Made by a program: the position numbers
Assembly (NCBI GenBank): GCA_963834385.1
Contig: CAWIBO010000002.1
Location: 704,001-768,000 of the forward strand
Direction of reading: 5' to 3'
Length of the DNA: 64,000 nt
Origin: an uncultured Verrucomicrobiae bacterium
Lineage (GTDB): Bacteria > Verrucomicrobiota > Verrucomicrobiia > Chthoniobacterales > UBA10450
Shown here: piece after piece, positions 27,001 through 33,000 of the stretch
How positions within the stretch are numbered: position 1 is the first letter of the stretch
Layout: every line of letters starts with the position of its first letter

Positions 27001-30000
27001 ATAATTTCCGGCCCCGCCGCGACATGACCCCCGTATTTCCCGCCGCCCAGACCCGTGTTGCGCCCGAGGTCCTGCTGGACGGCCGACTGGCGCTTTTCCA
27101 TGAAAAAGAGCGTTGGCTGGCGGTGGCCGACCTACATTACGGGTTTGAACTGAGTCAGCGGGCAGCCGGCTGGCTCACCCCGGTCTGGGGCATGGCCTCG
27201 GTGGAGACCCAGCTCGATTCTCTCCTGGAAACATTTGTCCCGGAACGGCTTATCATTGTCGGCGACCTGGTGCACGATCGCACCGCTCTCCCGGACGTCT
27301 GCCGTCTGCTCGAGCATTTGCGGCAGAAAACCGAGGTGATCGTCGTGGCCGGCAATCACGACCGCCACCTGGGCGGCGCGGTTCCGCTGGTCTCGCACTA
27401 CGAAACACCCGGGTTCCATTTTCACCATGGGCATTGCGCGGCCGCGGCCAACGGCCGGACGCGCATCATCGGGCATCATCACCCGGCCGCCAGCCTGAGC
27501 GACGGGGCGGGGCTGCGCTTGAAGTTGCCGGCGTTTGTCCAGGAAGGCGATTGCTGGATCCTGCCCGCCTTTTCGCCCTGGGCGGCCGGGGCGGCCTGGA
27601 AACAGACGGAGGAAAGCCGCGTCTGGCTCTGCTCGCCCCGCCGGATCCTGGAAGTATCGAGAAAAGCCGCCTAGGCGGCCGCGGTCGAGCCCAGCTCCTC
27701 GGTGCATTCCGGGCAGCGTTTCGCCTTGATCGGAATCGACTTGGTGCAGGCCGGACAATCCTTCACCACCGCCGGTGCGTTCGGCTTCGGTTTCTTCATC
27801 CGGTTAATGCCGCGTACCAGGAGAAAAATGGCGAAGGCCACGATGATGAAATTGATCACGAGGGTGAGGAAGTTCCCGTAGTTCCAGGTGATGGCCCCGA
27901 GCTTTTCCGCCTCTGCCGGGGTGGAAAACGAACCGCCCCCGGGGGCGTCCTTCAAGACAATGAACATGTTGGAGAAATCGAGTCCGCCCGTGAGCAGGCC
28001 AATCACCGGCGTGATGAGATCTTTGACGAGCGAGGAAACAATGCCGCCGAAGGCGGCGCCAATGATGACACCAACCGCCAGATCAAGGGCGTTGCCCTTG
28101 ATGGCGAATTCCTTGAATTCTTTCCACATAACAAATCAGTGACTCAATCCGTCACGATATTCACAAGCTTTTTCGGGACGACCACGACCTTGCGGGCGGT
28201 TTTGCCCTTGCCCTCAACCCATTCGCGCACCTTGGGGTTGGCCAGCGCGGCCTGCCGGTAATCTTCCTCCCCGACGGCCAGCGGCAGCCGGATGCGGTCA
28301 CGCAGCTTGCCATTCACCTGCAGGATGACCTCGACCTCATCCTCGACCAGGCAGGCGGGATCAAACTCCGGCCAGCGCTGATCGGTGATGGCGCCCGCAT
28401 CGCCGAAGCGTTCGGCCAGTCGTTCCCAAAGGTCGGAGGTGAGATGCGGAGCGAAGGGATTCAGAAGAACCAGGAGCGTGCGCAGGGAGCCAACCGGCCG
28501 CTTCTCGGCGCCCGTAAAGGCGTTTACGAACTGCATCATCTGCGCAATGGCGGTGTTAAAGGAAAGGGTCTCGATATCCTCCGTCACCTTTTTGATCGTG
28601 GCGTGCACCACCCGGCGCTGCGCCGGCTCCGGTGAACCTTCGTCCAAAGCGTCGGAAAGCACCCAGTCACCGGCCTGGTTCTCCTCCATGAAAAGCCGCC
28701 AGACCCGGGCAAGGAAGCGCGAGACGCCTTCCACCCCCTTCATGCTCCAGGGCTTCATCTGTTCGAGCGGCCCCATGAACATCTCGTAGCAGCGAAAGGC
28801 ATCGGCGCCGTGTTCGCGCACGACATCATCGGGATCGACCACGTTGCCCCAGCGCTTCGACATCTTGCGATTGTCCTCGCCCAGGATCATGCCCTGGTTG
28901 ACCAGCCGCTGGAACGGTTCCGCCTTCGAGAGATGGCCGAGATCGTAGAGCACCTTGTGCCAGAACCGGGCATAGAGCAGGTGCAAAACCGCGTGCTCCG
29001 TCCCGCCAATGTAAAGATCCACTCCGGCCGCCCCCTCGCCCCCCATCCAGTAGCGTTCGGCTTCGACGCCCACGAATCGGTCCTCGTTTCGCGGATCGCA
29101 AAAGCGCAGGTAATACCAGCACGATCCCGCCCATTGCGGCATGGTGTTGGTTTCCCGGGTCGCCTTCTCGGAATGGCGGATCCAGTCACGGGCTCGCGCC
29201 AGCGGCGGTTCGCCCGAGCCGGTGGGCTTGAAATCGTCTAGGGGCGGCGGCGAGAGCGGCAGATCGTCCGCCGGAAGGGCGCGGTGCCTCCCCTCTTCCC
29301 AGATGATCGGGAACGGTTCGCCCCAGTAACGCTGCCGGGAAAAAAGCCAGTCGCGCAGCTTGTAACGGACGTCGCGCCGCCCCCGGCCCTGCTCTTCCAG
29401 CCACCCGATGATCTTTTGTTGCGCCTCCGCCGTCGGCAGCCCGTCGATCAGCGGCGAATTGATCGCGACCCCGTCGCCGCTAAATACGGAGCCCGGGTTT
29501 TCAACGGAGCCCGGGTTTTCAACCCGGTCTTCACGGCTTGAAAAGCCGTGCTCCTAAAGTCGCGCTCCCAAACCGGTACGTCCTTGCCGGACAATCCGGC
29601 TTTCTCCGGGTTCATCGCGATGTACCTGCTTGAGAAAATCGTAATGTTCCTGCGACCGCACCAGCCGATCAAAATATTCCTCCTGCCAAAGCGATCCGCT
29701 TTGACCGATCCTCTTATTGATCTCCAGGGCCGAATGCCGCTTCCAGCTGTGAACCACGGCCGGAAGCGTCTCGTTTTCATGCAGGCGAACCAGCACATGC
29801 ACGTGATTGGGCATCACGCAGAACGCATGCAATTCGTAACGCTGGCCCTCAAAAAACCGTAACGCCTCGACAACGATCTGCGCACATTCCGGGCGGGCCA
29901 GCACGCAGCTGCCTGCGCCCGCGTCCAGCCACTCATCCAGCCGCGCGCCAAAACGCTCGTAGAACTCGTTCTCCTGTTCGGCCGTCCATGGCTCCGGGTG

Positions 30001-33000
30001 GCTTGCCAGCCAGCGTTCACGATCCTCCCGCAGCTCCGCGAGCTTCGGTTGCGGCAGGCTGTCGGCCAGACGCCAGGTGAGGAAGTAGAGGCTTTGGGCC
30101 TGCTGCCAATGCGGAAGGTTTCGTCGATGGATCTCGATCTCTTCGCGTGGATCGAGGAACCCCCTTTCGGAGCCCGGGTTTTCAACCCGGTCCTCGTCTT
30201 CACGGCTTGAAAAGCCGTGCTCCTTAGAAACCCCGTGCTCCGCAACGACCCGACGAATCGGAAGATCGAATTGACACGCGAATTCGAAATCCCGCTCGTC
30301 GTGCGCGGGCACGGCCATAATGGCCCCGGTGCCGTAACCCATCAAAACGTAATCCGCGATCCAGATCGGAATCTTCTCCTGGTTCACCGGGTTGATCGCG
30401 CAGGCCCCGAGGAAAACCCCGCTCTTTTCCTTCGCCAGATCGGTCCGCTCGAGATCGGATTTCGCGGCCACCTCAGCCCGATACCGGGCGACATCGCCCC
30501 GGCATTCCGCGGAGGTCAGTTGTTCCACCAGGGGATGTTCCGGCGCGAGCACCAGATACGTGGCCCCGTAGATCGTGTCGGGACGGGTGGTGAAAACCTC
30601 GATGAACTGATCAGGGTCCAGGGTGCGGGCTTCAGACCTTTCCCCTGAACCCTGGACACTGAACCCGGAAAACCTGATGACTGCGCCTTCACTCCGGCCA
30701 ATCCAGTTCTGCTGCAGCAACTTGATCCCGGCCGGCCAATCGAGCGGCTCCAGCTCCTCCGCGAGGCGATCCCCATAGGCGGTGATCCGCAGCATCCATT
30801 GCCGCATCGGCCGGCGCACCACCGGAAATCCACCCACCTCGCTTTTGCCGTCGATCACCTCCTCGTTGGCGAGGACGGTCCCGAGCTCCGGGCACCAGTT
30901 CACCGGCACATCCGCGACATAGGCGAGGCGCACCCCGTCCGGATCATCCCCGTCGTAAGTGTCGATTGGCTCGGCCTTGCGCGTGGCCGGGTTGAACCAG
31001 GAATGATAAAGCTGGAGAAAAATCCATTGCGTCCAACGATAAAAATCCGGCTCCGCCGTGCTGACCTCGCGGCTCCAGTCGTAGGAGAATCCCAGCCGCT
31101 TCAACTGGCCCTTGAACTTCGCAATGTTGGCCCGGGTGGTGATGGCCGGATGCTGCCCGGTCTTGATGGCATACTGCTCGGCCGGCAGGCCAAAGGCGTC
31201 CCAGCCCATCGGATGCAGGACGTTGAAACCGCGCATGCGTTTGTAGCGCGCCACGATGTCGGTCGCGGTGTAGCCTTCCGGATGCCCGACGTGAAGACCG
31301 GCGCCACTCGGATAAGGAAACATGTCGAGCACGTAATACTTCGGCCGGGTCGCGTCGAAACCCGGCTCCCCGGGATTGAGGGCGCGGAACGTTCCCTCCG
31401 CCTCCCAGCGCGCCTGCCAGCGCGCATCGATTTCGTCGAAAGGATAAGGTTTGCGGCGTTCGCTCATGCGCGAACAATCAGGAACGCAGGATGGCTCGGA
31501 AGGAAAATGAAATTTTTCGTTCTTTTCCGCGGGGTCAGCCGATGACGCTGACCCTGGCCACGGGCAATCCGCACAAGACCCGCGAGTTGAGGGCGCTCCT
31601 GGGGGACGCGGTGGAGTTACGCGATCTTTCGGCTGTGCCGGGTTTTTCCATGCCCGAGGAGACCGGGGCGACCCTGGAGGAAAACGCGATTCTCAAGGCC
31701 CTGGCCCTGGCCCGAGACCAGCCCGGGCTTGTTCTGGCCGACGACTCCGGCCTGGAAGTTGACGCGTTGGGAGGGGCGCCCGGCGTTTTCTCCGCACGCT
31801 ACGCCGGTGCCACCGCCACCGACGCGGACAATGTCGCCCGGTTGCTCGCCGCCCTGGAGGGAGAAGAAGATCGTTCCGCCCGTTTTCGGTGCGTTCTTGC
31901 AGTAGCCGAAGAAGGGCACCTTCTCGTGACGCTGGACGGCCTCCTCGAAGGGGCCATCGCCACCGGGCGGCGCGGTGAGAGCGGCTTCGGCTACGATCCG
32001 GTCTTTGTTCCGGCCGGGGAAACCCGGTCCCTGGCGGAGTTCTCCGCCACGGAGAAAAACCGGATCAGCCACCGGGCAAAGGCCGCGGAAAAACTGCGCG
32101 CCTGGCTGGAGAGAAGCCGCCGGTAAGCCGTCTGCGGTCCGGCGCGGCGACTATTGGGCGACCGGGGGCGGCGCCTTGATCTGGTAACCGATCTTGGTGA
32201 TGCCGGCGGAGCGCACGCGATCGAGCAGCGTGATGACATCGCCGTGCAAAGCCTGCTGATCGGCGCTGATCGAGACCTTGGCCGCTTCCCCGAGGTTCTG
32301 GCGGAATTGGAAAAGCGTCGGCAGAACCTGCTCGTCCAGCACGGGCTGATTGTCGATGTAGGTCTGGTTTCCCGGTGTCACCCGCAAGGTCAAATAGTCC
32401 TTCACCGGCGGCTGCTGCACCGCCTGCCCCGGCGCGGGAATATTAACCCGGATGCCCTTCATATGCGTCTGGCTAAGGCTGACCATCATGAAGCTCGCAA
32501 GGAGGAAGAACATGATGTCGATCAACGGAATGATCTCGATGCGCGCCTTCTTGTGCGGGATGGGTGACTTCATTCTCATGGCATGATCCCCTTTAGAATT
32601 GCGCGCCGGACATGGTGAAGGTGATTGGCGTCCTGACCTTGGTCACCGTGTTGGGCTTGAAGCGCCAACGCTTGAAAGGCGGAGGTGGCGGCGTTATCCA
32701 GGACCGAGCTGCCGGTGCTCTGCGCCATGACCGCGCTCGTGACCGCGCCGGTCGACGGATTCACCGTCATCAGGCAGACGCCGCTGCCGGTGATACGGTT
32801 CTTGCGCGCGGCGTAGGGATACTCCGGACGCGGCGAAGAGATGGCCGAAACCCTGGCGGTGGACATCGAGACCGGACCCGTGGGGCCGGGTGGACGCGGC
32901 CGTGAAATCGGTGGGGGTGGCTTGTTGGAAGGTGTCCGCGGCTTCGGCGGAGGGGTGGCCTCTTCCTCGACAAACTCAGGCTGCTCCGCGGTGGGGGGCG

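Follow-up and report, generated by a model that had tools for sequence, protein, structure and literature searches.

An in-frame RAYT transposase domain in the leucyl-tRNA synthetase of a verrucomicrobial genome, and an assembled stop codon that most likely reflects consensus errors

Can the only leucyl-tRNA synthetase (LeuRS) of a bacterium be cut in two by a transposase and its repeats, or does such a sequence reflect the way in which it was assembled? The question is raised by leuS in a stretch of 64,000 nt (the window) from an uncultured Verrucomicrobiae bacterium. A preliminary description took the gene to be truly split by a stop codon that a repeat supplies; we find that this picture most likely reflects consensus errors. 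The features of the locus are as follows (positions are those of the window, with the evidence in brackets).

31467 to 28144, minus strand: leuS (translation); its TGA stop is at 28141-28143.
30243..31467, minus strand: leuS 5′ part, LeuRS residues 1-408 (translation, Pfam, NCBIfam, 1h3n alignment).
30227..30241, minus strand: third, incomplete copy of the repeat's 5′ arm (repeat family D4; 87% identity with the arm at 30209-30223).
30168..30224, minus strand: upstream REPIN-like double hairpin (direct repeats D1 and D3, inverted pair I5).
29627..30171, minus strand: RAYT core in the leuS frame (Pfam Y1_Tnp, NCBIfam REP_Tyr_transpos, insert-domain HMM).
29625..29626, minus strand: GG with one apparently surplus G, where the transposase reading departs from the leuS frame (HMM frame switch; end of a short-read alignment).
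29557..29624, minus strand, +1 frame (leuS as frame 0): C-terminal RAYT helix that bears the catalytic Tyr motif, YIAMNPEKA... (HMM positions 180-198).
29554..29556, minus strand: TAG in the leuS frame (translation); one base is apparently missing just 5′ of the AG.
29487..29555, minus strand: downstream REPIN-like double hairpin (29505-29555) and an extra half copy (29487-29504) (D1 and D3, inverted pair I4).
28144..29486, minus strand: leuS 3′ part (translation; leuS_bact positions 368-842; Pfam Anticodon_1).

Signature features of a bacterial LeuRS are present, namely the HIGH and KMSKS regions, the CP1 editing domain and the anticodon-binding domain. The 5′ part spans the catalytic core's HIGH region and the greater part of the CP1 editing domain, and ends with HDERDFEFA and the beginning of a loop. 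It is matched by Pfam tRNA-synt_1 and tRNA-synt_1_2 (the editing domain, E 5e-55), and the Thermus LeuRS chain 1h3n can be aligned to it as far as residue 366. The 3′ part holds the end of the editing domain, RDWLFSRQRYWG, the second half of the catalytic core with KMSKR, and the anticodon-binding (Pfam Anticodon_1, E 2e-19) and C-terminal domains. We take HVGH (5′ part) and KMSKR (3′ part) to be the LeuRS signature motifs of the HIGH and KMSKS regions. The bacterial model leuS_bact (NCBIfam TIGR00396) is broken between positions 364 and 368 of 843; the two pieces, covering 1-364 and 368-842, score 509.4 and 455.3 bits (full-length cut-off 548.4). The frame contains a single TAG, with 637 codons 5′ of it and 469 codons in the same frame after it.

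Between the two parts lies an insert of about 738 bp, in frame and in the editing-domain loop, that consists of a hairpin repeat, a RAYT transposase and a second hairpin repeat. This element had been described before, and translation, the repeats and both profile libraries bear the description out. Pfam Y1_Tnp (PF01797) matches the insert with E 1e-10 and passes its cut-off (42.1 bits vs. 23); the E-value of 6e-17 for NCBIfam REP_Tyr_transpos (NF047646) was likewise reproduced, although the assembled insert stays under the cut-off of that model (61.8 vs. 80 bits). The RAYT core has the N-terminal LPHW, the HUH motif (NHVH) and the WQ region, all in the leuS frame, and an HMM of 117 insert domains aligns in that frame from position 3 to about 179 (296 bits). 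The RAYT is without a start, a stop or a ribosome site of its own, so it can be produced only as part of LeuRS.

Both flanks of the RAYT are direct copies of one double-hairpin repeat. The two copies reported earlier are there, and the downstream one is followed by a half copy in addition. In the leuS frame each is translated as linker, and the partial arm copy at 30227..30241 as the part of the loop immediately before the insert. As DNA, the upstream hairpin folds with -17.9 kcal/mol (z -4.26) and the downstream one with -18.5 kcal/mol (z -5.48). The genome has no dispersed REP/REPIN population: exact arms are confined to the leuS locus, and related hairpins occur elsewhere only at C2:856378-856586 and C5:174873-174919.

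The catalytic tyrosine was said to be lost. The assembled leuS frame indeed lacks the Y-x-x-x-N-P motif, but the +1 frame has it intact, immediately behind the RAYT core and where the profile expects it, within an ORF of 29448..29798. The HMM alignment passes from frame 0 to +1 between the codons CAG and TAC with zero profile residues lost, and the motif pattern occurs only 4 times in the 5.8 million six-frame positions of the genome. Over the 70 nt concerned (29556-29625), GC3 is 0.82 when read in the Tyr frame but 0.39 in that of leuS; for the leuS parts on either side it is 0.77-0.80 in their own frame. The 70 nt bear no signs of decay. A 26-nt pattern taken from the Tyr stretch had no exact match in the metagenome contigs. 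The two frame changes cancel, and the 5′ and 3′ parts of leuS are in one frame. The stop belongs to the same stretch. The upstream repeat copy reads AAG where the downstream copy has TAG. The in-frame TAG is real in the assembled letters, but the repeat contributes only its G, and the stop exists only within the 70 nt that do not share the register of the transposase.

The most likely reading is that leuS in the organism is one open gene of about 1108 codons, which would encode a working LeuRS with a complete RAYT in the CP1 loop, and that the stop is an assembly error. The RAYT, with both HUH and the catalytic Tyr, would be housed in a surface loop of the CP1 editing domain, between two translated REPIN-like double hairpins that would serve as flexible linkers. 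In the assembly, a surplus G at 29625/29626 and the loss of a base next to the TAG would have put the 70 nt out of register. The two indels resemble homopolymer-length errors of a long-read consensus. Because the 70 nt are out of register, a TAG appears and the Tyr seems to be gone; without the extra G and the missing base, leuS would be one open frame. The claim of a gene cut in two can be traced to a single out-of-frame stretch in an error-prone assembly. Frame changes are present in 20 of 93 conserved long orthologue-like genes, with 25 events over 46,918 aligned residues; several events come as pairs that return to the frame, and alaS is likewise broken. An open gene also fits with leuS being the only copy found and with the presence of six tRNA-Leu genes.

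The short-read data are low-depth contigs of four soil runs, with 29648-30025 uncovered. A contig of run X2 covers 30075-30326, which takes in the upstream hairpin, with two differences, and contigs of runs X1 and X3 cover 29358-29529. At the junction, a run X3 contig (depth 2, 3 mismatches, a near-identical strain) has one base inserted behind 29555, and its alignment coordinates imply six more bases near 29563-29568. The net gain of 7 nt brings the Tyr frame into phase with the leuS 3′ frame. The alignment terminates exactly at 29625, and its coordinates suggest that the G is absent upstream. A short-read variant at the stop had been noted earlier as a caveat; it exists, and together with the other differences of the contig it favours an open gene rather than a split one. 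Against an open gene it must be said that the assembled letters themselves contain the stop, that the read evidence at the junction is one depth-2 contig from a non-identical strain, and that errors cancelling exactly 70 nt apart are a coincidence, though returning pairs occur in other genes.

Homologues offer a view of the same loop in other assemblies. Relatives mostly have it short, as reported: of 29 loci examined 26 could be read, and the loop is 63-66 aa in 21 of them, 75-77 aa in three (one of 75 aa from G002, an unpublished genome), 115 aa in one and 130 aa (masked) in one. The relative G004 has a palindromic insert of repeat only in this LeuRS loop (z -6.8). When four long-loop relatives were folded, L027 alone was clearly palindromic, L036 was marginal (z -2.6), and L023 and L031 behaved as shuffles. 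Among sampled species representatives the LeuRS-RAYT form is seen in G000 only, and 150 further genomes of the phylum gave four LeuRS open frames above 1000 aa, none of the four with a RAYT match.

The arrangement is nevertheless not singular, as had been supposed, since many public LeuRS proteins of 1050-1290 aa carry a RAYT in the same loop uninterrupted by a stop. From the 117 closest long homologues with a RAYT domain, which was extracted and labelled, 56 are LeuRS; the RAYT lies in this same loop in all 53 that have both flanking motifs readable, and 51 of these 53 have the strict Tyr motif. Two named isolates, Luteolibacter pohnpeiensis and Roseibacillus persicicus, are among the LeuRS-RAYT proteins. 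The HUH motif is found in 117 of 117 insert domains. The closest homologue, P0002, has an insert 63% identical to ours and no interruption, and passes both cut-offs (leuS_bact 959.8 bits, NF047646 82.4); P0062 and P0099 are under the NF047646 cut-off. An AlphaFold model of P0062 is of low confidence (mean pLDDT 67.7, pTM 0.41). Against solved structures the RAYT of leuS gives weak sequence matches only, the best relevant one being 2f4f, a putative transposase (E 0.08). Other host proteins carry related RAYTs in frame as well, namely ValRS, AlaRS, CarB, PurL and restriction enzymes, and the RAYT lineages are host-gene specific.

It is unlikely that the frame changes are real and recent, i.e., that two indels have struck the transposase in its 3′ end, truncating LeuRS and leaving a pseudogene or a minority allele, the cell being served by an unassembled second leuS or by an intact allele of the population. 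The stop is present in the assembled sequence, the genome is only 89.6% complete, which leaves room for an unassembled second copy, and an undecayed out-of-frame stretch fits a very recent event as well as it fits an error. However, tblastn across the 5-contig genome found no second leuS, as before, and leuS is present in 100 of 100 genomes of the family (LeuRS 67-75% identical to the 3′ part). Moreover, the frame changes that similarly break about one-fifth of the conserved long genes cannot all be real, and where the short-read contig deviates from the assembly, it does so towards an open frame.

Very unlikely, in our view, is a true two-piece LeuRS, in which the active enzyme would consist of an N-terminal piece, joined to a RAYT without its Tyr, and a C-terminal piece with a start of its own. 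Split LeuRS are known: the Protein Data Bank matches include chains named “Leucyl-tRNA synthetase subunit alpha”, and the loop in which the break falls is a tolerant one between folded parts. We take the heterodimeric alpha/beta enzyme to be that of Aquifex. The break point of the Aquifex enzyme is outside this editing-domain loop, and its second piece has a gene start of its own. In leuS, codon reading agrees with the earlier finding that no ATG, GTG or TTG occurs in the first 137 codons 3′ of the TAG, and the first start thereafter would cost the RDWLFSRQRYWG part of the catalytic core; the two separately initiated genes that a two-subunit LeuRS requires are thus not present. A settled split would also not keep an out-of-frame Tyr motif intact, and the homologues that have an N- or C-terminal part only (P0008, P0047, and P0066) end, where their ends were read, in tails that look out of frame rather than in clean termini. 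The likeness to Aquifex would hold only if the stop were real, and the break is most likely an artefact.

That the assembly is correct and read-through of the TAG or a double frameshift yields full-length protein in regulated amounts is highly improbable. In its favour, leuS has just this one stop, in frame, and read-through might in principle be stimulated by the hairpin that follows. But a CUA anticodon is absent among the 49 tRNAs found, the read-through product would be without the Tyr helix that is conserved in all 117 related inserts, and the homologues read show no stop at this place; no slippery motif was seen either, though no search was aimed at one. The same absence of a CUA anticodon led us to reject a suppressor tRNA or another genetic code for TAG.

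Among known systems, the nearest are the REPtrons, i.e., RAYT (TnpA-REP, Y1/HUH) genes flanked by REP or REPIN hairpins, as described in PMC3333891, PMC3733652, and PMC6006769. The leuS insert shares with them HUH, the WQ region and (in the +1 frame of the assembly) the C-terminal Tyr-x-x-x-N-P helix, the long form of about 200 aa with an N-terminal extension, hairpin repeats on both sides, and one closely related copy per genome. Unlike a REPtron, it is not a separate gene but an internal domain of an essential enzyme, it has a mere handful of related hairpins elsewhere instead of a large REP population, and as assembled it misses the NCBIfam cut-off. The RPEs of Rickettsia, and REPs inside ORFs, tRNA synthetase genes included, are also in-frame palindromic repeats, which add peptide to functional proteins in loops that tolerate it (PMC3733652); those of leuS bring a whole in-frame transposase domain with them. 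In subclass 2.4 of Quentin et al. (2018), REPs are in frame inside tnpA-REP genes and so respect a reading frame too, except that there the repeat is within the transposase, whereas here transposase and repeats are within a host gene (PMC6006769). Unexpectedly long proteins were excluded in that study as fusions or annotation errors (PMC6006769). Our literature search found no paper describing in-frame RAYT inserts of this kind.

With inteins and homing endonucleases, the RAYT of leuS has in common that a selfish enzyme sits in frame within a conserved essential gene, that imprecise loss would be lethal, and that the lineages are host-gene specific. Scanned with Pfam, the insert and the 637-aa piece gave tRNA-synthetase families and Y1_Tnp but no Hint/intein family. 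We rejected an intein because the Hint family and splice-junction residues are absent; unlike an intein, the domain presumably stays in the mature protein.

We suggest tentatively, stopping short of calling it probable, that the RAYTs of this clade are catalytically intact HUH/Tyr enzymes that persist with their hairpins as unspliced in-frame domains of essential or defence genes, type I and MmeI-like restriction enzymes and glycosyltransferases among them, and that the leuS copy is active and the chimeric LeuRS is the working enzyme of the cell. Such RAYTs would be expressed only within the host protein and would long have been kept in host-gene-specific lineages. Their spread among species would be patchy, for instance because they home to one and the same loop or because the flanking repeats allow clean loss again and again. 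The RAYT of leuS is predicted to act still on its flanking hairpins.

Two cancelling indels in a long-read assembly can thus mimic a lost catalytic motif and a split gene. What they would hide here is a complete tyrosine transposase as an internal domain of the only LeuRS found, one of a large set of in-frame inserts with conserved catalytic residues. If the chimeras are active, they would be a natural example of an enzyme from a mobile element whose expression hinges on an essential host protein, and would point to a site of the LeuRS editing domain that tolerates insertion; L. pohnpeiensis and R. persicicus would then allow direct study. In the short reads, one joint that skips 925 bases (side 20) resembles the LeuRS of another organism, without the insert.

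The gene leuS, encoding the leucyl-tRNA synthetase (LeuRS), carries about 738 bp that are missing in relatives. Its single-frame translation runs for 637 codons to a TAG at 29554-29556, then for 469 codons up to a TGA. On the leuS_bact profile (843 positions) the 5′ part matches to position 364 and the 3′ part matches 368-842. Within the insert, direct repeats flank a domain of the REP-associated tyrosine transposase (RAYT) type. The features are:

31467 to 28144, minus strand: leuS (translation)
30168-30224, within the leuS insert: double hairpin, first copy (repeat search)
545 bp within the leuS insert: transposase stretch (Pfam Y1_Tnp, E 1e-10; NCBIfam REP_Tyr_transpos, E 6e-17)
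29505-29555, within the leuS insert: double hairpin, second copy, direct orientation (repeat search)
29487-29504, within the leuS insert: additional half copy of the hairpin (repeat search)

The REP_Tyr_transpos score is 61.8 bits, under the 80-bit cut-off. Both repeat copies are predicted to form long imperfect hairpins (z -4.3 and -5.5 against shuffled controls). The 137 codons following the TAG include no ATG, GTG or TTG, and tblastn in the five contigs of the genome found no second leuS, other matches being weaker (<32% identity). The preliminary description of the letters was thus accurate as to the insert, the repeats, the TAG, the want of a start for 137 codons and the single leuS.

That description also held that the TAG cuts leuS in two and that the RAYT has lost its catalytic Tyr. 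The two turn out to be one frame problem. We compared the insert with a RAYT profile made of the domains of 117 homologues, drawn from the 119 best long matches excluding the window's own; in the other two the match did not span the domain. The leuS frame covers profile positions 3 to about 179. The catalytic-Tyr helix (positions 180-198) matches the +1 frame, not the leuS frame, and there the textbook Y-I-x-x-N-P-x-K-A is intact at the expected position, as part of an ORF at 29448..29798. The switch sits between a CAG and a TAC codon, at one surplus G (29625/29626), with zero profile positions lost. Past the switch by 70 nt, directly before the AG that ends the TAG, the +1 frame is short of one base; with that base it would read on through the repeat into the 3′ part of leuS. 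At the place matching the TAG the upstream repeat copy has AAG.

The third-position GC of the 70-nt stretch is 0.82 in the Tyr frame vs. 0.39 in the leuS frame, and the flanking leuS parts have 0.77-0.80 in their own frame. Across the genome's 5.8 million six-frame positions, the pattern of the Tyr motif occurs only four times. Given this GC bias, the intact motif and its rarity, the Tyr frame is the one in which the stretch has evolved as coding DNA, and the break in leuS is either very recent or not real. We think it probable that a single open frame runs through leuS, giving a LeuRS that contains a complete RAYT internally, and that two indels cancelling each other have produced the TAG as an artefact. 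Having no start of its own, the RAYT would be made only together with its host LeuRS.

How often this assembly changes frame was gauged with 400 kb of a relative (G016:C23; 98% completeness), in which 179 open frames without overlap, each of 300 aa or longer, were called and used as tblastn queries against the genome. Of these, 93 were orthologue-like (best match at least 45% identical), and in 20 of the 93 the frame changes between adjacent colinear matches. The 25 events in 46,918 aligned residues amount to about one per 5.6 kb, by a test that is blind to short out-of-frame stretches like that in leuS, which tblastn passed straight through. A second shift restores the original frame in two genes (q23 and q79), and three more genes have two shifts. 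The alaS gene of this genome is likewise split, into two overlapping frames. With one fifth of the conserved long genes affected, not every break can be genuine in a living cell. The five contigs and the 89.6% completeness fit a long-read consensus carrying indel errors. Six of the 25 changes fall in the window, at about 684, 11217, 11902, 40058, 40506 and 62317 (C2:704684, 715217, 715902, 744058, 744506 and 766317); consensus indels, and not biology, are the probable cause of the breaks in those genes.

Four soil runs from one study carry parts of the leuS locus as low-depth contigs. One contig spans the upstream insert junction (30075-30326, 2 differences) and others cover 29358-29529. The insert junctions are therefore no assembly chimera, though the runs possibly come from the assembly's own sample. 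The extra base reported earlier at the stop was seen, added behind 29555 in a contig of run X3 (151 nt, depth 2) that covers 29491-29625; the other differences of this contig favour an open frame. Its two aligned pieces are contiguous in the contig and overlap by six reference positions. Judged from these alignment coordinates, not from letters, six further bases lie near 29563-29568, and the net +7 nt, resting on them, would bring the Tyr frame into phase with the leuS 3′ frame. The alignment goes exactly as far as 29625 and leaves nine letters unplaced; by its coordinates this is what one missing G would give.

A real break in leuS, if recent, would also suit a stretch that still reads as coding, and we regard it as unlikely. 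A true two-piece LeuRS enzyme is more doubtful still: the 137 codons after the TAG have no start codon, and the Tyr motif is intact out of frame. Recoding is the least credible, as no suppressor tRNA is among the 49 tRNAs found.

The arrangement is not singular. Among longer proteins containing the insert there are 906 matches at E <= 1e-5, and hosts were labelled for 117 domains extracted from the best 120 of them, using BLAST against reference members whose names come from their Pfam strings.

Hosts of the 117 extracted RAYT domains (BLAST labels, number of proteins)
LeuRS: 56
ValRS: 23
Type I restriction R subunit: 17
MmeI-like enzyme: 8
Glycosyltransferase: 4
Methyltransferase-like: 2
DegT, PurL and one other family: 1 each
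Without label: 4

The LeuRS matches among the best 120 are mostly of 1050-1290 aa and stop-free; among them are proteins that NCBI names for Luteolibacter pohnpeiensis (P0062, 1077 aa) and Roseibacillus persicicus (P0099, 1069 aa). In all 53 with both flanking motifs readable the RAYT occupies the one LeuRS loop, and 51 of the 53 have the strict Tyr motif. HUH is found in 117/117 RAYT domains and the strict Y-x-x-N-P pattern in 110/117; in the other seven the Tyr remains but the tail varies. The LPHW, HUH, WQ and Tyr-Asn residues are invariant among 43 aligned full-length LeuRS-RAYT proteins. The nearest relative among the matches listed (P0002; insert 63% identical) has similar repeat-coded peptides flanking its RAYT and scores above the curated cut-offs of leuS_bact and of REP_Tyr_transpos. 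It also has a second insert of ~190 aa (residues about 815-1000) at another variable LeuRS site, before the GGVDLYVGG region, with a precomputed Pfam PF18812 match. The LeuRS match is divided at that site in many family genomes, and G074 has ~180 extra residues there with no RAYT match. A settled split LeuRS among the homologues found no support: in P0008, P0047 and P0066, which resemble N- or C-terminal pieces and whose ends were read, the tails look out of frame.

In the family (UBA10450), 90 of 101 genomes have RAYT-like matches, mostly within stop-free open frames of 900-1500 aa; the counts given here include three unpublished genomes, G002, G007 and G014. At the first 19 loci besides the window's own, the host, assigned by eye from terminal sequences, is presumably ValRS at five, CarB at six and PurL-like at two, and six are free-standing RAYT genes of about 210-250 aa. 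At L002-L019 the RAYT is in frame and stop-free in the ValRS, CarB and PurL-like genes; the RAYTs form one clade per host gene, with another for the free-standing copies. The second RAYT-like match of the genome under study is inside alaS (L051, C3:123614-126895, outside the window), an in-frame Y1_Tnp-like domain at Pfam E 1e-4, just under the cut-off. A weak RAYT-core match inside ~860-950 aa open frames of many family genomes may be the same AlaRS insert.

A LeuRS with RAYT was seen in only this genome of the 101, LeuRS open frames of the others being mostly of 815-975 aa, and none of the four LeuRS frames >1000 aa in 150 further phylum genomes has a RAYT match. Thus, the form is frequent in the public protein collection and patchy among species representatives. 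In a RAYT tree (137 rows; IQ-TREE quick, LG+G4) the domains cluster by host gene, with 13 label changes (minimum 11, shuffled mean 73.7); the ValRS and PurL loci cluster with their Pfam-labelled counterparts, and the domains of the window and P0002 are sisters (SH-aLRT 97). A LeuRS tree was made from the post-loop part (81 rows, FastTree), leaving out 2 of 29 family loci and 3 of 56 LeuRS-labelled proteins that had no motif or were too short. There the family clade (support 99) takes in the window and P0002 together with 27 insert-free genes; the two are not sisters, and the next outgroups carry RAYT. This topology fits an old insert with repeated clean losses, or else an insert that spread from one leuS to another.

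On its 5′ side the insert is flanked by sequence that aligns to Thermus LeuRS as far as residue 366, and also to isolated editing-domain constructs; by these alignments the insert lies within a CP1 editing-domain loop. The loop from HDxRDxxFA to RDWxxSRQR was readable at 26 of 29 family-genome loci and is, as earlier described, short in relatives: 63-66 aa at 21, 75-77 aa at three (one 75-aa loop being from the unpublished G002), 115 aa at one, and 130 aa with masked letters at one. In L042 (G043) ~100 codons of the loop are masked (N). At the RAYT insert's place, the 115-aa loop (L027, genome G004) is encoded by a long nested palindrome (-71 kcal/mol, z -6.8), either a repeat-only insert or a scar. 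Insert folds of three other long-loop relatives are marginal or the same as shuffles. In a predicted model of P0062 of low overall quality (mean pLDDT 67.7, pTM 0.41), taken as no more than a hint, the RAYT (about 434-613, block means 61-87) is a separate alpha/beta unit; the repeat-coded linkers flanking it, 398-433 and 616-638, have pLDDT <50.

REPs within ORFs, tRNA synthetase genes among them, are described in a paper that also recalls the Rickettsia RPEs (PMC3733652). Another reports REPs in frame within tnpA-REP genes and set aside unexpectedly long proteins as fusions or annotation errors (PMC6006769). In the full-text literature searched, including PMC5581495, no account was found of a host gene containing a RAYT in frame, which is not proof that such a case is unpublished.

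Other hairpins related to the RAYT-flanking repeat occur only at C2:856378-856586 and C5:174873-174919, both outside the window. They comprise a tandem pair close to the ends of genes and a single copy inside a 767-aa open frame, the latter possibly a further in-frame repeat insert.
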